From positions 1-41,418 of the IMG/VR virus record IMGVR_UViG_3300048516_000008: DNA of 41,418 nt. One strand, given 5' to 3'. Both the position numbers and the translations under genes were made by a program. Shown here piece by piece: positions 4,579 through 41,418 of the stretch (position 1 is its first letter; the number at the start of each line of letters is the position of its first letter). Below the pieces are notes generated by a model. It saw nothing but the letters and a program-made list of their open reading frames with translations. It made no database searches and was not told where the DNA came from. This DNA comes from a virus. Taxonomy: Duplodnaviria; Caudoviricetes.

Positions 4579-4744
4579 CTATTTCTAGGCGATGCCGATC
4601 GCGCCTTTAAAATCCGATCGCCCTTAATGTAGCCCTTGCTGCTATAGCCTCAGCCGTTACCCGATGCAACCTCGATCCGTTGTAGCGGGGATCGTTTTGT
4701 TTGTATATCTATATCTACAATACTATAAACGTTAATCCCGGATA

Positions 4745-11637: not shown

Positions 11638-12050
11638 GCGCGATCGTGCCTACACGCGCGCGCTAGGCATAGGTGCATGGCATGGCAAGGCATGGCATGG
11701 CATGGCAAGGCATGGCATGGCAAGGCATGGCATGGCATGGCTAAGGCATGGCTAAGGCAAGGCAAGGCATGGCTAAGGCAAGGCATGGCATGGCTAAGGC
11801 AAGGCATGGCATGGCTAAGGCAAGGCAAGGCATGGCATGGCATGGCTAAGGCATGGCTAAGGCATAGGCTCTAACGTGCGATCGTGCCTACACGCGCGCT
11901 AGGCATAGGTGCATGGCATAGGTGCATGGCATAGGTGCATGACATAGGTATTAGGTATTAGGTATTAGGTATAGGTATTAGGTATAGGTATTAGGTATAG
12001 GTGGCATAGGTGCAGGGTAGGGGAGGCATAGGTGTAGGGTAGGGTAGGCG
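11638..12050. repeat. Low-complexity tandem repeats (GCATG/GCAAG/GCTAAG, then GCATAGGTGCATG and TAGGTAT) bracketed by a duplicated GCGATCGTGCCTACACGCGCG..CTAGGCATAGGTGCATGG unit
   Basis: Directly visible; bracket copies at ~11640 and ~11878. Confidence 0.95.
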
Positions 12051-12072
12051 ATCGAAACCAGCAACTTAAAAT

Positions 12073-12282
12073 CAAGAAATATTATCAAGAAATATATTGT
12101 CAAGAAATATATTATCAAGAAATATATTATCAAGAAATATATTATCAAGAAATATATTATCAAGAAATATATTATCAAGAAATATATTATCAAGAAATAT
12201 TATCAAGAAATATTATCAAGAAATATTATCAAGAAATATTGTCAAGAAATATTGTCAAGAAATATAATATCAAGAAATATTA
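12073..12282. repeat. 15 tandem copies of CAAGAAATAT(AT)TAT (13/15-bp units)
   Basis: CAAGAA starts at 12073, 12086, 12101, 12116, 12131, 12146, 12161, 12176, 12191, 12204, 12217, 12230, 12243, 12256, 12271. Confidence 0.95.
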
Positions 12283-12748
12283 GCTTTGAGTTGCTATGTA
12301 GTACCCCAGACCCCCCCCCTCACTAGACCCCCTTCAGATTATTTCCTAATATCAACTTCAAAGTAGAAGCAAGTTTGAATATTATGATGAATGAAGTTTT
12401 AAAGCAAAACTTTGTTTAATGAAGTTTTGCAAGTTTTGCTAAAGTTTTGCTAAAGTTTCTTAAAGTTTCTTAAAGTTTTCTTGATTTGTCAAAATTAATC
12501 TTGATTATAAAACTTTGAAGCTAGCATCAAAATTCATTATAAATTTAGCTTGAAAAGTGCTACCCTAGCATACCCCCCTAGACCCCCCCTCTGAGCATTT
12601 TTTAAAACTAGGAAAATTTAACATACTGAAGCTACATTAAAGCAAAACAAAGCAAAAGTAAAAAAGCCAAAATGTTTAAAATATTTTTGATAAAAAACAT
12701 TGTCCAACTGTTAATGGTAGAGTCCGGTTGTTTCTGTAGCGTCCTATT

Positions 12749-13894: not shown

Positions 13895-14746
13895 TTAATC
13901 TGTGAAGTGAACGCGGCAGCGGACAATGTTTGCCATCTGCACGGCGTTTTCGTGGGGAATAGCACCCTCAAAGTCGATAAACTCAATCACGTAGTCTTCA
14001 CGGAGTTTTAGCTTGTCTAAAGCGCGTTCTGAGAGGTAATCGCGGGTCAATTGGGAATCTTTGGTTAGATTGAAGTGCGATCGGATTTGCGCTGCGGTAA
14101 CTCCCCACATGGCTTGATAGAGTTGGTTGGTGCATTGGGCAATTATTTTTCCTAGTGGTAGATTCGTCTGAGTGTCGGGGCGATCGTACCAAGCTTTGAT
14201 TGAGTCCGTAAGTTCGCGGCGGGTAACTATTGTTGCCGATCGGATCTTTTTCCATCTTATTTGTAGCTCCTTTTCTGCCTGTTTAGCTTCCTCTGTGAGA
14301 GCCTTAAATTCGCCACTGAGAACTAATAGCAGCGTGTACCCCGCCCACGCTTCAAACTCTGAGCTAATCCAACTTGCTACCGAGATCGCGATTTGTGGAT
14401 GTCCGTATACCCCAGCATCGCCACCAATAGCGTCTCGTGTTTGTATTAGTAAACCTGATGTAATCCCAAAACCCAGGCAATCGTTGAAACCCGCATGGTT
14501 GTCCGGGGTGATTATAATCACCCCGGACGGGCTATAGGTTCCAGCCTCTAAAATTCTCAAGACAGCGTGAAAATAAGATAAGCGCTTCTTATCTTTCGTT
14601 AAGTAGTCTACCAAGCGCTTGCCACCTGCTTTGCACATCTGACTGAGGTTTACATACCCTTTGGGGATTGTTACGCCGTTAAGCACGGTCTCTGAAGATG
14701 TTTGCTCGATCGCCTTGCCATTGAAATTGTGTGGTATGATAGTCAT
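13895..14746 (-). CDS. KilA-N domain DNA-binding protein
   Basis: HNFNGKAI..GYVNLSQMCKAGGKRLVDYL..GVYGHPQIAISVASWISSEFEAW. Confidence 0.85.
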   Translation of the reverse strand: MTIIPHNFNGKAIEQTSSETVLNGVTIPKGYVNLSQMCKAGGKRLVDYLTKDKKRLSYFHAVLRILEAGTYSPSGVIIITPDNHAGFNDCLGFGITSGLLIQTRDAIGGDAGVYGHPQIAISVASWISSEFEAWAGYTLLLVLSGEFKALTEEAKQAEKELQIRWKKIRSATIVTRRELTDSIKAWYDRPDTQTNLPLGKIIAQCTNQLYQAMWGVTAAQIRSHFNLTKDSQLTRDYLSERALDKLKLREDYVIEFIDFEGAIPHENAVQMANIVRCRVHFTD

Positions 14747-24764: not shown

Positions 24765-25508
24765 ATGCTAGCAATAATTCCCATTTTAATAAAGGTAACG
24801 GCGGGCGCTTTAACAAAGGGATCGGCTAAGGCGATCGCAAAATGGGCGGGCGGCAGTATTGCTAAAAAATATATTGCAACAAAGGTAGCTGAAAAGGCGA
24901 TTCATGAAGCAAAAAAGATGGCTTCGGGTGAGTCTAAAGACTGGCAAGCAGCATTTAAAGAAAGTCCTGCAAATGCCCTTAGAGACGCTGCTAAAGATTT
25001 TGTGAAAGCTGAAGTCGAAAATGCGTTAATTAATGAAGATTTAATCCAGTATTATAACGACAGATTGATAAACAATACAGGCGATGCTGTTCAGAGGGAA
25101 AGTAGAAATCTGATTGCTGATCCCAATAACTATATACTGAAAATAGACCCGGAAAAGATTATCGATCGCACTACCAGCGATATTATCAGCAGAGGCTTAG
25201 AATGGCATCAGAACAGATCGGTGATAGGTGGCAGTTCGCAGCTACTCGATCGCAATGTGATAGGCGGTAGCAGTCCGATCGCATCAAGGCAGATTTTAGA
25301 GGAAGTTAATCAAATCGAAAGTGTCGATCGCATTACTACCTCAGACCTACTTGAAAGCGCCGGGAAAACGGCGTTTTATGACTCGTTTGATGAGCGCAAC
25401 CTCACATATACCGTAATCGGTACTGATGACGCTTTAGCGGGGCGTGTACGCAGTCCTTTAGAGGCTCTAATGCAGACTACTTTTGATATAAACGAGCCTG
25501 TTAGTTGA
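24765..25508 (+). CDS. Hypothetical protein (neck region)
   Basis: 247-aa ORF with an internal duplicated NRSVIGGSS/DRNVIGGSS. Confidence 0.55.
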   Translation: MLAIIPILIKVTAGALTKGSAKAIAKWAGGSIAKKYIATKVAEKAIHEAKKMASGESKDWQAAFKESPANALRDAAKDFVKAEVENALINEDLIQYYNDRLINNTGDAVQRESRNLIADPNNYILKIDPEKIIDRTTSDIISRGLEWHQNRSVIGGSSQLLDRNVIGGSSPIASRQILEEVNQIESVDRITTSDLLESAGKTAFYDSFDERNLTYTVIGTDDALAGRVRSPLEALMQTTFDINEPVS

Positions 25509-25528
25509 AGGGGCGATCGGGCGGGTTC

Positions 25529-26010
25529 TTTCACTACCGTTAGCCCCGTTCCTAGAAAGGCTTTCAGCTATTTGGATACGATTTTTCCCCTTCCGATGTT
25601 TTCTAGGTTTATATTCCCAGTGGCGAACCCAGAACCCGCTCCTAGTATAGCTTTGATACCTCTTGTGGCGTGAATCGTGGCGAACCCAAAAACCCGCGCG
25701 GGGCGGGTTGGGTGCAGGGCGATCGGCTCATCGTGAGTTTTACCAGCCTGGTTAAGCCAGAACCCGCTCCTAGCATGGCTTTGATGTCTCTCGTGACGTG
25801 ATTCGTGGTTAAGCCAAAAACCCGCGCGGGGCGGGTTAGTTGAAGGGGCGATCGGGCGGTTTGCGCTTTTTGGTGGGACGGGGAAGCTATACCCAGTAAG
25901 GTTTTTGGCTGTTTTGGCAAGTGTTTTGGTGGGACTGACTTGGGATGTCTTGGAACCCTTAGCGAGTAACCGTTTCGAGTCACAAGCCGCAGTATTTGGG
26001 ATGTCTTGAG
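25529..26010. repeat. Non-coding array of five 56-57-bp-period motif units
   Basis: Unit A is 47/53 identical to 26643-26695. Direct-repeat pairs: GTGGCGAACCC 25620/25677, TGGTTAAGCCA 25749/25806, TTTTGGTGGGAC 25868/25924, TTGGGATGTCTTG 25940/25996. Confidence 0.85.
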
Positions 26011-26079
26011 TTAACCAGTTGATACCGATCGCCCGATCGCCCGCAAAGATTAATCCCAGTGTTGGGAACCTACCCAAAC

Positions 26080-26101
26080 AAAAACCCGCACGGGGCGGGT
26101 T
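26080..26101 (-). terminator. Terminator hairpin AACCCGC-loop-GCGGGTT with U-tract on the minus strand (copies ~25688-25709 and 25816-25837)
   Basis: Located just downstream of the 26128 stop. Confidence 0.7.
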
Positions 26102-26127
26102 AGGTGCAGGGCGATCGGGCGGGCTAT

Positions 26128-26847
26128 TTATTTGGGTGTATTTTGTACCCGAATAATTCCTAAAGCAGCTTCATGCGTCACGTTTGCCGTTCTTAGTACG
26201 TCATAACAAGCCTCAGCACGGTTCAGCCTTTGAAGTAGCTCCCAGTCTGCCTGTTTGTATTCGTCTAAATAAGTCAGGGGAACATTTGCAGCCTTCTTTA
26301 ACTTGTTGACCTCGACACCCCACAAGACCGCGCTACAATCACCCCCAGCGTCTTGTTTTAGCCATTTAGTAAATAGCTCGTGAAACTGTTTTTTGTGCGC
26401 TAGCTTCTCTGCTAGGTATTGCTGACGCTCTTCTAGGGTTAATTCGATCCCTAATTGTTCATAGGCGATCGAGCGGATCGAATCTCCAAAACCCGCAGCT
26501 AATATTTGGGCAACTCCTATATTTTGGTTGACCGAGGATTCCCATGTGGCGATCGCTAGAAAATCTTCTAGCAGCATTAGTGCGACTTTTGCTGTAGCAC
26601 CAATCAATTTCGGCTTATTGACAATGGTTCCGGTAAATTTTCCTACCGTTCGCCCCGCTCCTAGAAAGACTTTCAGAGATTTGGATGCGATTTTTTTCCT
26701 TACGTTATTAGGCTCGTAATTGAGAATGACTTCGGCTGTGGGGTAAGTCAGGTATAAGTCCTTTGGAGAATTGACATCGATCGCGACTTCCAGATTTTCC
26801 CATCCGCTGTACTTGACGGTTTCTAATCGAACTGTTATATTAGGCAT
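26128..26847 (-). CDS. Antirepressor-like DNA-binding protein (cyanobacterial SKSLKxxLG type)
   Basis: NNVRKKIASKSLKVFLGAG motif; shares its promoter and leader with the KilA-N gene. Family assignment is an inference. Confidence 0.6.
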   Translation of the reverse strand: MPNITVRLETVKYSGWENLEVAIDVNSPKDLYLTYPTAEVILNYEPNNVRKKIASKSLKVFLGAGRTVGKFTGTIVNKPKLIGATAKVALMLLEDFLAIATWESSVNQNIGVAQILAAGFGDSIRSIAYEQLGIELTLEERQQYLAEKLAHKKQFHELFTKWLKQDAGGDCSAVLWGVEVNKLKKAANVPLTYLDEYKQADWELLQRLNRAEACYDVLRTANVTHEAALGIIRVQNTPK

Positions 26848-29881: not shown

Positions 29882-29915
29882 TCCCCGCTATTCCCAGTGT
29901 TGGGAATAGTAAAAC

Positions 29916-33117: not shown

Positions 33118-33124
33118 TTTTAGA

Positions 33125-34115
33125 GCAATTACGGGAATCCCCGTAATTACTTTAAGGGTGTCGGTTGAATCTACCCCCTTAAAGTAACTATCGGGATGCC
33201 GATAGTTACCTTTAGGCAATTACGCAAATTTGCGTAATTGCTTTAAAGGTGTTTGTTAGTAACAAACACCTTAAAGTAACTATGCAGATTCGCATAGTTA
33301 CTTTAAGGCAATTATGGGAATCCCCATAATTGCTTGACCTGCTACCGGAAAATCGGTAGCAGCCTCAAAGTTAGGTGCGGGTTTTTCATTGGGCGCGATC
33401 GGGGGATGAGTTCGCTAATAACGAAGTCATGAAGTGAACCCCATACAACCCGCCCGGCGTAATAGTTTCAGCTTTTTTTCGGTTTTTCTTGTGAACTCTT
33501 TAAACGCGATCGCCCGTGGTATCGGTAGTAGCGATGTCATCGCCTGAAAGCCTTACTGTGTTTGGTTCATCGGTTAAACCGATGATGCTGTCATTAGCAA
33601 TGACCCCCTTAAAGTAATTACGGGAATCCCCGTAGTTACTTGACCTGATGACGGAAAATCGTCACCAGGTCAACCGAACGGTTCGCAATCCTTGCACAGT
33701 ATAGGTTTTGTCTATTCCTGTCTCTATTTCCCGAACCCCATACAACCCGCCGTTATCGTGATCCCGATAACGGCTTTAAGGGTGTCATCAGTAATGACCC
33801 CCTTACAGTAACTACCGGAATCCCGGTAGTTACTTTAGCTTAAGCCCGATCGCCCGATAGTGTCGGTAGTAGCGATGCAACACCATGCAACCCGCCCGGC
33901 GCAAAGGTTATATCGTATTTTTCCCCGGTCTCTGCAACACCCCGTTATCGTGATCCCGATAACGGGGTGTCATCAGCAATGACCCCCTTAAAGTAACTAT
34001 TGGATTCCCAATAGTTACCTCAGCTTAAGCGCGATCGGTCTATCGGAATCCCGATAGACTCCCTAAGCGCGATCGCCCCATAAAAAAGATGGATTCGTTA
34101 TTAACGAATCCATCT
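33125..34115. repeat. Non-coding array of ~23 variant palindromes plus three 57-bp-period direct-repeat units
   Basis: About 13 units of the type G(C/T)AA(C/T)T-[5-4-5 palindrome]-A(A/G)TT(A/G)C or with other arms, and about 10 GGTGTC..GACCCC-like units. No ORF of 60 aa or more inside. Confidence 0.9.
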
Positions 34116-34146
34116 CCTAAGCCACAGTTAATCCCAGTATTGGGAA

Positions 34147-34941
34147 TTACATCAAATCTCGAACAGTCTCAACCATCGACTCTACCCATTTTGTGTGTTG
34201 GTAGCTGGTATTGTCTTCCTTGCGTCCGGTGGCGATCGTATTGCAGGAATACGGTTTGCCTTTCTCTGTGGGGAAATAGGCGGGTTCTGTTTTGCCTTTG
34301 TTAGGGTTCTTTATTTGGTAGCCATTAGCCGTCAGCAGCGCGTTAATTACCCGTGCTGAAGTGCCAAGCCGATCGCCGATCGCCGTGGGAGTTAGCAGTA
34401 TTTCTGCGATCGGGGTGTTGGCTGCGAGTAGCGAGTGCGCGGCATTGATACTTTGCTTTAGTTCGGGATGATATCGTTGGACTTCATTTAGCAGCATCCC
34501 ATCAACTAGCGGCGCTGGTACGCTAGACATCGCCGATCGCAGTAAGTCTAAATGCGCTGCGGTTAATGCGGGTTTCTCAGATTTGGGCGCGATCGAGACC
34601 GTCCCTTCAGTCATCAGGGTTTTAATTTGTTGAGATACCCAAACTCGGAATTTGACATTGCACCACGCCGCGAAGTCGATCGCCACTTCCTCAATTGCCC
34701 ACGTCCCCCGCTGTTCGTTAGTACCTTTAGACTCATTTGTCTCGATAATTTGGTCTACGGGAATCCCCGCAGACTTCCCAAACTCAGTCAGGAACTCGAT
34801 TGTAGTTGCTAATCGTAGGTAATCATTAACCCGCTTACCCGTCGCCTTAGCCATATCGGTTAGGCTAACCCACACCCGATCGCCCCGCATCTCAAACCGA
34901 ATATTCTTGCCAGCAAAGTCCAAAACTGTTAAACTAGACAT
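34147..34941 (-). CDS. KilA-N domain antirepressor-like protein
   Basis: FAGKNIRF..VWVSLTDMAKATGKRVNDYLRL..GIPV..GTWAIEEVAIDFAAWCNVKFRVWV; C-terminal LTPTAIG..SARVINALL..GYQ winged-helix. Confidence 0.9.
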   Translation of the reverse strand: MSSLTVLDFAGKNIRFEMRGDRVWVSLTDMAKATGKRVNDYLRLATTIEFLTEFGKSAGIPVDQIIETNESKGTNEQRGTWAIEEVAIDFAAWCNVKFRVWVSQQIKTLMTEGTVSIAPKSEKPALTAAHLDLLRSAMSSVPAPLVDGMLLNEVQRYHPELKQSINAAHSLLAANTPIAEILLTPTAIGDRLGTSARVINALLTANGYQIKNPNKGKTEPAYFPTEKGKPYSCNTIATGRKEDNTSYQHTKWVESMVETVRDLM

Positions 34942-35047
34942 AACTTACCTTGGTTGATTTATCCTTCAAATATATTATACCATAGGAAAACACAAAACCC
35001 GCAAACTTTTAAAAGAATTTGCGGGTTTTTTATTGGGCGCGATCGCC

Positions 35048-35067
35048 TGTGGATAACGTTATCCACA
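35048..35067. promoter_or_regulatory. Inverted pair of consensus DnaA boxes
   Basis: TGTGGATAA-CG-TTATCCACA; both halves match TTATCCACA perfectly. Confidence 0.6.
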
Positions 35068-35094
35068 GTTAATCCCACTGTTGGGAATTAAGCG

Positions 35095-39143: not shown

Positions 39144-39839
39144 TTAGTCAAAAAACCCGCGAATTGTTGCCTCTAATTCTGGGGTGCGATCGTACACATT
39201 GACTTGATAGCGTCCGTGTTGAGTTTGCCCTAAAGGTTCGTGAGAAGTCCTCACCCACTTACCCAATTTTGCATCTTCACCGGGTTTTAAAGAATAGCCA
39301 AGATCCCGCGCTAAAACGGCTGCTATGACGGGTTTAGCTTGACTTCCTGGTAGAGCGTTGTTTGCTCCCAATTCCTCTGCTAAGCGCTGCTCAAACGCTG
39401 CTTTGATTATTGGGTTAGTGATACTTGGCAACAGTTTTGTAGCTTCTATTAATACCTCAAAAGATGTCGGCAACTGTCGGGGCGGTTCTGGCGTGGGCGC
39501 GGTTAGTTGGCTGATAACGTGTTTTACCCCGATCGCCCCAAACGTTCGAGCCAACTGCTTAGCCATCGGGGCGGCTGCTTTTGATTCATAAGCGAAGTAT
39601 TCGATCGCTAGCCAAACAGCCTGCGGGGGAAAGCCATTCTCTACCAAGTCAGCAGGCTTAAACCCATACTCTGTAAGGGTTTGACCTAATTTTGCCGACT
39701 TGAAGTCAGCACCTCGGATGATGCTAGTATCATCAACACTACAGCAGCGCGCGACACCACGGATGCTCAAATTTCCGTTAGGCATTGCCTGATCTCGAAT
39801 GAAGCTCAAAAATTCTTGCTCAGTGTGTATAATGGTCAT
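39144..39839 (-). CDS. Antirepressor-like DNA-binding protein (cyanobacterial SIRGVAR type)
   Basis: LSIRGVARCCSVD HTH-like, AIEYFAYE, AIGVK, C-terminal KLGKWVR..VNVY. Start moved to ATG 39839. Confidence 0.65.
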   Translation of the reverse strand: MTIIHTEQEFLSFIRDQAMPNGNLSIRGVARCCSVDDTSIIRGADFKSAKLGQTLTEYGFKPADLVENGFPPQAVWLAIEYFAYESKAAAPMAKQLARTFGAIGVKHVISQLTAPTPEPPRQLPTSFEVLIEATKLLPSITNPIIKAAFEQRLAEELGANNALPGSQAKPVIAAVLARDLGYSLKPGEDAKLGKWVRTSHEPLGQTQHGRYQVNVYDRTPELEATIRGFFD

Positions 39840-40020
39840 TATTAGTTGTCTCTTGTTTGGGTAACTGCGATCGCGTATTGCCAAATTCCCGATCGCCTAA
39901 TAATATTATAACATACTAATATTAAAAACCCGCACGTTCTTAAAAGAATTTGCGGGTTTATTCTTGAGGATTAATCCCAATGTTGGGATTAATCTTTGAG
40001 GGCGATCGGGTTAATCGAAA

Positions 40021-40223: not shown

Positions 40224-41418
40224 ATGACATTAACGATCGGGCGTGAAGAAGTCGAGTGCGAGTCATTCAGAGTGAGGGGAAGTTACAACAGCACGATCGC
40301 GCGCTTGTTCGCGTTACCCGTAGCGGTACAAAGTACAGAGCCGCTAACTTTAGAAGTGACGATTAAAGGCAACAAATTTAAACCAGTAAAAAAAGTTAGG
40401 CGGGTATATTGGCAAAAAAAATATGTAGGTTATTTTGTAATAGGTAATGTTTCCCAAGAATGGGAAGGCGATCGGTATCGGACACGGTTAGAGTTGAAAC
40501 AATGCGAGAGATCGGACGTACCTCAAGACGAGATCCCGATCTATAAGTGGCGGCACGATTTAATAGCTCTGTCGCAAAATTTAGAGCAAACGGACGGCGC
40601 TATAATTGCAGCCGGAAGACAGATAAACCCGATCGCAGAAAGTTGGAAAGTTGGCAATACTGAGATCGCTAGTGCGAGTGATGATAATGTTTCACCCGCT
40701 GTACTTCCTGTGAGTTTGGGCGGTACGGGCGCGAGTGATCCGGTAATAGCATTAATTAATTTGGGCGCGATTAGTTCTGCTAGTAAAGGCTTGCCGTTTG
40801 GGGTAGCGCCGTTAGGTTCGGATGGGAAAGTTCCGGCTATATTCTTGCCACCTGGTGGCGGTGGCGGTGGCGGTAGTGTTACATTCCCCATTACTGTTGC
40901 CCAAGGCGGTACAAACGCGCTAGACGCGGCGACAGCACGGACAAATCTGGGCGTGGTTTCAACAGCGACTTATACCGCAGGACTGGCATTGAAATTAGAT
41001 GCCAGCGCGCGATCGGCTGCTGATGGTGTTGCCCCCTTAGATGTTAATAGTTTAGTCCCTACAGCAAACCTACCTGCTTATCCTACGCTTGCAAGTTTGG
41101 GCGCGGTATCAACATCAACTTATACAGACGGGCTAGCACTGAAATTAGATGCCAGCGCGCGAAATGCTGCAAACGGTGTTGCACCTTTAAATGTTAACAG
41201 CTTAGTCCCTACAGCAAACCTACCCGCTTATCCTACGCTTGCAAGTTTGGGCGCGGTATCAACATCAACTTATACAGACGGGCTAGCACTCAAATTAGAT
41301 GCCAGCGCGCGAAATGCTGCAAACGGTGTTGCACCTTTAAATGTTAACAGCTTAGTCCCTACAGCAAACCTACCCGCTTATCCTACGCTTGCAAGTTTGG
41401 GGGCGGTATCAACATCAA
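40224..41418 (+). CDS. Tail fibre protein (partial, runs off window) with 50-aa repeats
   Basis: My own translation from ATG 40224 is open: PVSLGGTGA..NLG, GVAPLGSDGKVP..LP, poly-Gly, then 150-bp repeats. Absent from the ORF track because it has no stop in the window. Confidence 0.8.
   Translation, partial: MTLTIGREEVECESFRVRGSYNSTIARLFALPVAVQSTEPLTLEVTIKGNKFKPVKKVRRVYWQKKYVGYFVIGNVSQEWEGDRYRTRLELKQCERSDVPQDEIPIYKWRHDLIALSQNLEQTDGAIIAAGRQINPIAESWKVGNTEIASASDDNVSPAVLPVSLGGTGASDPVIALINLGAISSASKGLPFGVAPLGSDGKVPAIFLPPGGGGGGGSVTFPITVAQGGTNALDAATARTNLGVVSTATYTAGLALKLDASARSAADGVAPLDVNSLVPTANLPAYPTLASLGAVSTSTYTDGLALKLDASARNAANGVAPLNVNSLVPTANLPAYPTLASLGAVSTSTYTDGLALKLDASARNAANGVAPLNVNSLVPTANLPAYPTLASLGAVSTS
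40948..41418 (+). repeat. 150-bp tandem repeats within the tail fibre gene
   Basis: Units start at ~40948, 41098, 41248 and 41398 (partial). Confidence 0.9.

Follow-up and report, generated by a model that had tools for sequence, protein, structure and literature searches.

In the 41.4-kb record IMGVR_UViG_3300048516_000008 of a cyanobacterial virus, analysed here over its entire length (41,418 nt; hereafter the window), about 1 kb of DNA beside a gene for a KilA-N domain protein is an array of short pieces that match variable sites lying inside the genes of phage regulators. In KilA-N genes the bases of such a site covary with residues of a helix encoded by the same gene. The array pieces are trimmed to the site, most of those of KilA-N type misfit the adjacent gene, and they turn over between related viruses. 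We consider it probable (roughly 0.6) that the array is a catalogue of borrowed operators which docks the regulators of rival phages on this genome.

The window encodes terminase, capsid, tape-measure and baseplate proteins (Pfam scan), and a tRNA scan of it found no tRNA. It is rich in GCGATCGC, which we take to be the cyanobacterial HIP1 motif, and its close relative L005 was found within a cyanobacterial assembly. The array lies between the stop codon of the tape-measure gene (33117, plus strand), which immediately precedes it, and the 3' end of the KilA-N gene (34147–34941, minus strand); the surroundings are a plus-strand block of structural genes.

Palindromes and pieces in the array

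The initial annotation had described a 1-kb array of about 23 different palindromes at this place. Eighteen palindromes with a score of at least 9 were found at 33118–34120, whereas 200 dinucleotide shuffles gave 0.035 on average and never more than 1; at a score of at least 7 there were 19, with 0.79 expected from dinucleotide shuffles. The number was also about right, as we assigned 26 pieces by hand, among them three direct-repeat, non-palindromic sites and a few Bro-N pieces that are weak palindromes. With boundaries placed by hand, these pieces span 861 of the 991 nt (87%) of 33125–34115. All 13 cores listed earlier, each of two 5-nt half-sites around a 4-nt spacer (5-4-5), are present, but the positions given for them are mostly those of the arm starts, and the cores begin 4–10 nt later (true starts include 33131, 33190, 33222, 33282, 33314, 33344, 33620, 33650, 33755, 33814, 33947, 33999 and 34042).

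The array has no constant repeat. Its repeat families are 60–90% alike and irregular, and the TTTAAG or TTAAA sequences proposed as linkers turned out to be mostly overlaps between adjacent pieces. Local duplication is indicated by one degenerate 92-nt period and by a 73-nt block present four times, and the blocks duplicated with the 92-nt period bear different cores, each of them a natural allele. A search for close copies of the array by its arms gave 0 matches. A looser arm pattern gave 77, none with array-like G+C cores on inspection and taken as chance, and a degenerate pattern stayed at control level in two genomes.

Match between array pieces and regulator genes

At the same codons, a palindrome of variable sequence is present in homologous KilA-N genes. 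In the KilA-N gene of the window it was correctly annotated at 34753–34774 (GCGGG/ACGGG, codons 57–63, encoding SAGIPVD); it is the putative operator of that gene, and the same 22 nt occur as a non-coding unit in L005. The suggestion that the array cores are natural KilA-N alleles was borne out for the set: the 11 KilA-type units comprise 22 half-sites, and 20 of these are found among the 28 half-sites that occur naturally inside genes. When all 13 listed cores are counted, 21 of 26 half-sites are natural (2.0 expected; maximum of 10 in 2000 random draws). KilA-type units have exact matches of 20–30 nt inside genes of L005, L108, L117, L120, L121, L122 and L125, and the longest in-gene match overall is 33 nt (L131). 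The KilA-N allele TGKSV proposed for the GGAAAATC cores (33344 and 33650) has to be withdrawn: on the minus strand these read ATDFPVA and GDDFPSS, and one of them has the 33-nt exact match, in a gene of another family (L131/P0118).

The link to the KilA-N in-gene palindrome was correct but too narrow, because genes of Bro-N and of two unnamed families are matched as well. By family, 11 pieces are KilA-N, 10 are Bro-N and 5 come from the two unnamed families, the assignment of several pieces being one of peptide resemblance. The remaining pieces read on the minus strand as variable segments of Bro-N genes (KGVITDDTL, KGVDSTDTL, KVFVTNKHL, DDIATTDT and SIIGLTDEPNTVRL) and of P0118-type and P0036-type genes. 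In P0036-type genes the variable element is a direct repeat ~60 nt apart, of which the array retains both halves and the spacer. The array-matched genes belong to the Bro network, a set of phage regulators that swap domains such as KilA-N (PF04383), Bro-N (PF02498), AntA, Rha and ORF6N (PMC10111431 and PMC9043618, in the portions available), and N-terminal domains swap on a shared C-terminal domain. In breadth, the array covers at least seven KilA-N specificities and four protein families, with 1–3 copies of each.

The array shares 122 exact 12-mers with KilA-N genes, and their start falls in site codons for 120 of them and never in helix codons. The array holds sites trimmed of the helix codons, locks without keys.

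Covariation of helix residues and site bases

The palindrome is in register, with at least three of five half-site pairs, in 38 of 46 tabulated KilA-N genes. The eight genes out of register were dropped, and further rows (three skipped, five without the anchor motif) were left out before the code was counted. In the 38 genes, counting both half-sites, residue 40 of the protein goes with base 3 of the half-site: His with C (16/16), Asp with G (32/32) and Gly with G (10/10). Residue 39 goes with base 2, where C accompanies Asn (26/26) and Tyr (4/4) and T accompanies Ala (14/14) and Gly (20/22). Out of 29 upstream positions, residue 39 was the best for base 2 (z 10.7) and residue 40 for base 3 (z 12.2); residue 37 was also high for base 2 (z 10.0). 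In the window protein these residues are Asn39 and Asp40, within the second helix of the helix-turn-helix model (codons 37–43, RVNDYLR; 34813–34833, minus strand), where the model is confident (helix 38–43, pLDDT above 90). The helix codons are ~55 nt from the in-gene palindrome, and helix and site share one stretch of ~100 nt. Contacts of His with G, Asp with C and Asn with A on the facing strand are standard base contacts.

The peptide TGIPV is encoded with ACG..CCC under an Asn-Asp helix and with ACC..CCG under Asn-His, the peptide IGIPI splits likewise, and in L227 an ATGGG site accompanying an Ala-Asp helix lies in another reading frame. Because one peptide has different palindromes according to the helix, and because the L227 site is out of frame, the code is a signal in DNA and not in the peptide. 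Mismatches in the in-gene palindromes (7 G-U, 10 A-C and 20 other, at 342 positions) show no preference for G-U on the mRNA strand, and the spacer is fixed at 4 nt and 81% A+T; both observations fit a double-stranded DNA site rather than an mRNA hairpin.

On a tree made without helix and site, independent pairs agreed with the code in ~7/7 (p=0.016), 5/5, ~5/6 and 2/2 cases and never went the opposite way. In 69 further proteins, which are related to the first set and so not independent of it, base 2 was correct in 113 of 127 half-sites; Met accompanied Asp or Gly in 18 of 19 cases, and Ile accompanied His or Asn in 18 of 20. Fifteen distant genes were taken from phages of Microcystis, Nodularia, Synechococcus, Bacteroides and Escherichia and from other genomes. 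Ten of these were readable and paired Asp with G (7/7) and His with C (3/3), and the genes of the Microcystis cyanophage Mic1 and of the E. coli phage vB_EcoS-673R7 obey the code. Bro-N genes have a helix-base covariation of their own on the 3' half-site (30 of 45 in register, z up to 9.3). The code across the 38 genes makes it likely that each KilA-N protein binds the site inside its own gene. In PCG2, a KilA-N relative, helix B lies in the major groove according to the available part of PMC4333399.

Sites in relatives

Catalogues of such sites were found in L003/L118, L005, L108, L112, L123, L224 and L225 and in two cyanobacterial genomes, and in relatives the units occur at gene borders of many kinds and take up no set position relative to a promoter. 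A tighter pattern searched in 401 cyanobacterial genomes matched 12 of them, compared with 7 for the control; the matches L229 and L230 are catalogues, and L235 and its duplicate L241 lie in one KilA-N gene. At 1310–1700 of L230 (G398, near terminase genes), in another cyanobacterial prophage, there are at least seven palindromes of further types.

The initial annotation had tied the array to the adjacent KilA-N gene. This tie did not hold, as nine of the 11 KilA-type sites here misfit the specificity predicted for that gene and relatives have other genes, or one unit, at the place. The search for a regulon elsewhere in the phage was negative: the predicted site of the window's KilA-N protein was found nowhere else in the phage genome than in its own gene and twice in the array. 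At seven other loci with a KilA-N gene, some of which share arrays, 15 of the 16 detected non-coding units misfit. One of the catalogues is an element flanked by an integrase gene and tRNA-Pro; it carries four KilA-type sites, and the sole KilA-N match of that genome lies on another contig.

The catalogues differ at the same place. L004 and L137 have a single unit at the orthologous place, and the sequencing runs X2–X4 have other subsets. In X5 the first slot has changed from ACGGG to ATGGG in both arms and the next slot is another natural Bro-N allele, and in X6 the last slot holds a different palindrome that differs at 12 places with its symmetry kept; these slot comparisons are based on contigs of modest depth. 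The polyA RNA run X14 contributed one 395-nt contig, from a relative, which may be DNA. Among relatives the place behind the tape-measure gene is a hot spot for cassettes. In L137 (11780–13053), what by eye looks like a TnpB/IS605-type element splits the KilA-N cassette that follows the tape-measure gene, close to the 3' end of the cassette.

The pieces of the array

The whole catalogue of in-gene sites from Bro-network genes runs from 33125 to 34115, with 26 pieces in hand-drawn boundaries; no strand is assigned to it or to its pieces except where the minus strand is named. It opens with a KilA-N site ACGGG/ACGGG (ITGIPVI, 33125–33150) that has a 23-nt exact match in gene L108 and whose predicted reader, with Asn-Asp, is this phage's own KilA-N protein. 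The Bro-N site KGVDSTDTL (33153–33179, minus strand) reads KGVVTTDT in the relative X5, and its best match among 50,697 phage records lies inside an 'anti-repressor Ant' gene (E 0.09). At 33182–33209, the KilA-N site ATCGG/ATCGG (VTIGIPIVT; predicted reader Gly-His) has natural half-sites and the peptide of P0086. Next come ACGCA/ACGCA (ITQICVI, 33216–33241; 20-nt exact match in gene L122, predicted reader Tyr-Gly), a site of a Bro-N subfamily (KVFVTNKHL, 33246–33272) resembling EVFVSNQHL of P0056, and two further KilA-N sites, ATGCA/ATGCG (VTMQIRIVT, 33274–33303) with a 30-nt exact match in genes L120 and L121 and the predicted reader Ala/Ser-Gly, and ATGGG/ATGGG (IMGIPII, 33308–33333) with a 23-nt exact match in gene L125 and the predicted reader Ala-Asp.

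A site of the unnamed P0118-type family (EAATDFPVAGQ, 33334–33366, minus strand) has the 33-nt exact match in L131, and its peptide is identical in P0118. It is followed at 33376–33401 by a cassette-border remnant, half of a terminator-like element also present at 35020–35045 (repeat D12, 96% identical), and by an imperfect site, DEFANNEV / DFVISELI (33402–33432), which is Bro-N-type by peptide resemblance and has a 79% inverted match to 34089–34117. The first direct-repeat site of the unnamed P0036-type family (RVH...GGLYGVH, 33425–33500, minus strand) retains both halves and the spacer in a layout shared by P0040–P0049. On the same strand lie the Bro-N site DDIATTDT (33513–33545; compare P0157 and P0033) and two overlapping Bro-N pieces at 33546–33612, KGVIANDS and then SIIGLTDEPNTVRL, the second agreeing in 13 of 14 residues with SIIGLTDNPNTVRL of P0171.

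The second ACGGG/ACGGG site, again of the Asn-Asp self type, lies at 33612–33641, and the second P0118-type site, GDDFPSSGQ (33640–33673, minus strand), was assigned by likeness to 33334–33366. A P0036-type direct repeat (GVR...TVR, 33674–33751, minus strand) was read from its peptide. The KilA-N site ATCGG/ATCGT (AVIGITIT, 33749–33774; predicted reader Gly-His) has half-sites that also occur in the KilA-N gene of Mic1. The Bro-N site KGVITDDTL (33777–33805, minus strand) agrees in 25 of 27 nt with gene L119, compared by eye, and the KilA-N site ACCGG/ACCGG (VTTGIPVVT, 33807–33834; predicted reader Asn-His) differs from gene L118 in the spacer only. Peptide reading placed a Bro-N fragment (IATTDTIGR, 33850–33877), a third P0036-type direct repeat (GVA...GGLHGVA, 33872–33944) and, beyond the second ATCGG/ATCGT site (33937–33970; repeat D10), the Bro-N site KGVIADDTP (33963–33990), whose other strand gives GVISNDP; these three are on the minus strand. 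The last KilA-N sites are ATTGG/ATTGG (33991–34018; predicted reader Gly-Asn) and ATCGG/ATCGG with GTCT..AGAC arms (SIGIPID, 34038–34059). The array closes with the Bro-N-type site DGFVINESI (34087–34115), in place of which the relative X6 has a different palindrome of 29 nt.

A second, small catalogue in the same genome (36632–36700, no strand assigned) was read by eye as the KilA-type sites GCGCG/ACGCA and ACTCA/ACTCG, and the latter unit also occurs in L005, L108 and L119. At 25480–26120, just past the 3' end of the gene at 26128–26847, lies a second patchwork of short variant pieces, part of which resembles a stretch of that gene and in which a 99-nt block is present twice (D17); it is probably a catalogue for other regulator families.

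The KilA-N gene and related regulators

The KilA-N gene (34147–34941, minus strand) encodes 264 aa, with an N-terminal KilA-N domain (PF04383, E 6.6e-18; 65 bits at a curated cut-off of 23.8) and a C-terminal part common to proteins with Bro-N, AntA and unnamed N-terminal domains. Residues 96–263 match the anti-repressor family Ant (phrog_130, E 6.6e-10). No match of the protein (P0001) to PF03374 (ANT/KilAC) was found at E up to 1, and relatives gave E 0.07–0.17 only; the C-terminal part appears weakly Ant-like. ESM Atlas gave unnamed clusters and weak Bro-N and KilA-N leads for it. The structure model is confident and has the expected elements of a winged helix-turn-helix. A fold search ranked PCG2 and Mbp1 first, at a weak E of 0.05–0.1, and a sequence search of solved structures returned nothing below E 0.05 and no match to either protein. 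A homodimer prediction for residues 1–116 scored 0.14.

N-terminal domains swap on the same C-terminal part as that of the window's protein. A second KilA-N gene (13895–14746) has a perfect 28-bp in-gene palindrome (14501–14528), whose register is unlike 5-4-5 and which was left out of the code on that account. Two genes on the minus strand, 39144–39884 and 26128–26847, are without a Pfam or PHROG family. The N-terminal domain of the former also stands on the C-terminal domain of a KilA-N protein in P0054, and is therefore an unnamed domain of the Bro network. P0036 and P0039–P0049 have a common N-terminal domain with no Pfam family, in which a variable dipeptide repeated ~20 residues apart forms the direct-repeat in-gene site; it is a candidate for a new family of DNA-binding domains. 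L016 and P0118/L131 are chimeric or partly duplicated regulator genes. Because their joins lie close to in-gene sites, they suggest that these sites may also be recombination hot spots for domain swapping.

Other repeats in the window

A 22-nt palindrome, TTAATCCCA-N4-TGGGAATTA, lies at 4743, 4844, 6468, 9244, 9923, 13877, 16183, 22201, 31485, 34128, 35069, 36884, 39104 and 39971, and also at 29888 in the palindrome scan. It was counted at 14 places, against 0.05 expected, often at gene ends and bracketing oppositely oriented cassettes; it may be an operator, or a site of recombination at which cassettes are exchanged. A dispersed repeat of 95 nt with an A+T-rich centre (D3; 756, 14908, 19742, 27113, 36507 and 36732), similar to stretches that adjoin site catalogues in L005, L108, L123 and L225, could be a late promoter or a regulatory element. 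Tandem arrays at 11679–11864 and 12049–12293, of GGCAT-type units of 10–11 nt and A+T-rich units of 13–15 nt (D1, D2), look like a replication origin with iterons. Beside the border of the KilA-N cassette, 35047–35068 is a palindrome of two facing TTATCCACA motifs, presumably the DnaA-box consensus. An 81-nt promoter-like element with an inverted repeat precedes early genes in five copies (D5; 4921, 6507, 7150, 9269 and 9948), and a tandem repeat of 150-nt period at the contig end (D4; 40942–41418) is probably within a tail or fibre gene.

Discussion

Regulator genes of this kind all contain, at a set position, a palindrome or direct repeat that varies, and these elements are matched by the array pieces. 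In KilA-N genes, the identity of residues 39 and 40 is a statistical predictor of half-site bases 2 and 3 within that gene, as would be expected if the protein bound there. The array keeps locks without keys, of many specificities, and turns over between relatives. When this phage shares a cell with other phages or with prophages, their proteins would bind the matching array sites. The most likely gain would be that the genome is handled like the protein's own, or that the protein is drawn away from its own genome, and in either case regulators with C-terminal domains that affect the host and co-resident phages would be blunted or exploited. New pieces would come in through recombination with co-infecting genomes over short homologies and would also arise by local duplication, and such mimicry of sites would drive fast change of helix and site. 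ANT/KilAC proteins block the SOS response and the induction of co-resident elements, the N-terminal domain acting on the own phage only (available sections of PMC9043618), and KilAC proteins stop cell division (bioRxiv 2024.01.05.574328, portion available). As the C-terminal domain in the window is only weakly Ant-like, these activities carry over by analogy only.

A more far-reaching version, which we put forward tentatively and hold to be distinctly less probable, is that KilA-N, Bro-N and related proteins serve as self markers, with lock and key in a single gene and a code of two to three residues, and that the arrays are heritable, updatable sets of keys forged from rivals. The protein would then treat genomes with and without the site of its own gene differently, and, since reading is left to the rival's protein, the array would be a memory akin to CRISPR with no need for RNA or for an enzyme of its own.

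Several observations weigh against the docking of rival regulators. Binding of the array by foreign proteins and the acquisition of pieces by recombination are steps that we infer. With 1–3 copies per specificity the array is a weak sponge, and two of its sites fit this phage's own protein. The ~55-nt spacing means that helix and site can travel together. The phylogenetic test was small, with one of four contrasts at p<0.05 (0.016), on a quick tree of recombining genes. Residue 40 Asn is found with base 3 T in only 9 of 16 half-sites. Among the distant genes, base 2 fails in L226 (Ala with C), L250 and L253 fit on one side only, five of the 15 have no readable palindrome in register, and three of the ten readable ones came from a search with a DNA pattern. 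Most base contacts of PCG2 are made by the wing and not by helix B (PMC4333399, available part), and PCG2 itself is a weak fold match (E 0.05). Several pieces were assigned to families by peptide resemblance only, and a loose count of peptide matches (47, with a control-region mean of 30) separated poorly and was too noisy.

The alternative that fares best, though we regard it as improbable, is a sensor in cis, in which the sites are operators that tune the phage's own transcription and foreign proteins act as a roadblock in the late operon, tuning the lytic decision. The position of the array, directly after the tape-measure stop and within the plus-strand structural block, speaks for it. Against it, the units of relatives lie at many kinds of gene borders with no fixed promoter position, promoter-like and terminator-like matches were at chance level, and a benefit from blocking one's own late genes is hard to see. 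Many specificities in 1–3 copies each, free in position, favour docking (a 'self tag') or partial titration over a promoter-linked sensor.

Slightly less probable still are neutral relics, that is, debris of regulator cassettes repeatedly inserted and deleted at this place and kept because palindromes promote recombination. The place is indeed a cassette hot spot, the array contains the cassette-border remnant, and its pieces are joined via short overlaps. Debris accounts poorly for pieces cut to the site, as seen in 120 of the 122 shared 12-mers, for a direct-repeat family that retains both halves and the spacer, for 92-nt-period blocks whose cores differ and are each natural, and for slot changes that preserve symmetry.

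Gene conversion from silent cassettes is known from pilin and VlsE, and the units could in the same way be donors copied into the adjacent KilA-N gene to vary residues 58–62. The units are in-frame natural alleles with arms, and chimeric genes are fused near sites (P0118 and L016). We nevertheless think this unlikely. The helix-base code argues against such switching, since for Asp, Gly and His all 58 half-sites keep the match of helix and site, which conversion of the site alone would break, and the array is without the helix codons. In place of one gene's variable part with long flanking homology, we found four families, arms that give 7–12 nt of homology each, and no covarying helix codons. 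Fifteen of the 26 pieces come from families other than KilA-N, an element exists that has sites but no KilA-N gene, and in the rows listed for the contigs of run X1, the likely source, no base of the in-gene site was changed.

Transcription of the array into hairpins serving as guides, antisense RNAs or RNA decoys, like the P4 CI RNA in a Bro-network gene, is very improbable: strong folding of the array strand (z -22.9) is what any set of palindromes has to show, and Bro-network genes host immunity RNAs (PMC10111431, in the part available), but the in-gene mismatches lack a G-U preference, the spacer is fixed at 4 nt and 81% A+T, three pieces do not make a hairpin because they are direct repeats, neither a constant repeat nor a promoter signal is present, and an Rfam search gave no match at gathering score and none to CRISPR families, only sub-threshold matches to microRNA-type hairpins. 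The array was likewise rejected as a structured non-coding RNA, as it has no known-family match and no RNA-type G-U pairing.

Roi of coliphage HK022, described by Clerget and Boccard in 1996 (J Bacteriol 178:4077), reportedly binds a site inside its own gene. Further marks of Roi-like regulators are an adjacent IHF site and a growth phenotype that depends on IHF. It is, like the proteins considered here, an antirepressor-like phage protein, and the symmetric site at a fixed coding position in 38 of 46 KilA-N genes recalls it; the accounts of Roi within reach concern one gene and one site, with no variable helix-base code and no array of foreign sites. The antirepressor-like protein Rha (phi80/P22) blocks phage growth in hosts without IHF (excerpt of PMC4936722). 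For the Bro network, the AriS N-terminal domain acts on its own phage only (PMC9043618), and the portions of the literature available name no binding site, in-gene palindrome or orphan site array, the string 'palindrom' occurring 0 times in the text of PMC9043618 at hand. The fungal KilA-N/APSES proteins Mbp1 and PCG2 (PDB 4UX5) belong to the same domain family and are the top fold match. In the part of PMC4333399 available, PCG2 places two domains per duplex and the fixed CGCG element in target promoters is read mainly by the wing, whereas here specificity follows helix residues and the protein's own gene harbours the site.

CRISPR arrays and Cas-less mini-arrays resemble the catalogue: they too are non-coding, built of modules that record sequences of other mobile elements, and different from one relative to the next. 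Unlike them, the catalogue has no constant repeat, fixed period or leader, and the captured piece is always the same functional spot, which would be read as DNA by the rival's protein rather than through a guide RNA. We rejected an identity as a CRISPR array, as the repeats are 60–90% alike and irregular, with one degenerate 92-nt period, instead of near-identical and regular; no cas genes were found among the 28 window proteins scanned with Pfam. Operator titration, decoy sites and orphan antitoxin or immunity arrays neutralise a partner encoded elsewhere. Here the antidote would differ in being a piece of the partner's own coding sequence, in many specificities and for at least four protein families. 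Full-text literature searches, with subscription papers mostly outside their reach, found no description of such arrays or of a residue-to-base code. New here are the residue-to-base code, the piece-by-piece reading of a catalogue that spans four families, and direct turnover of slots between relatives.

Phage regulators very commonly contain Bro-N, KilA-N or related domains, whose function the literature, in the portions available, calls unclear and for which it names no DNA target. The covariation predicts a binding site for each family member directly from its own gene. The code is testable by single swaps (His40-C, Asp40-G, Asn39-C and Ala39-T), and immediately so in the genes of the cultured cyanophage Mic1 and of vB_EcoS-673R7, which follow it. 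If KilA-N and Bro-N proteins are self markers, this would explain the fast diversification of these 'antirepressors' and would yield a natural and simple protein-DNA code. The arrays point to an undescribed layer of conflict between phages that is fought with DNA sites, in which other phages and satellite-like elements collect sites as well.

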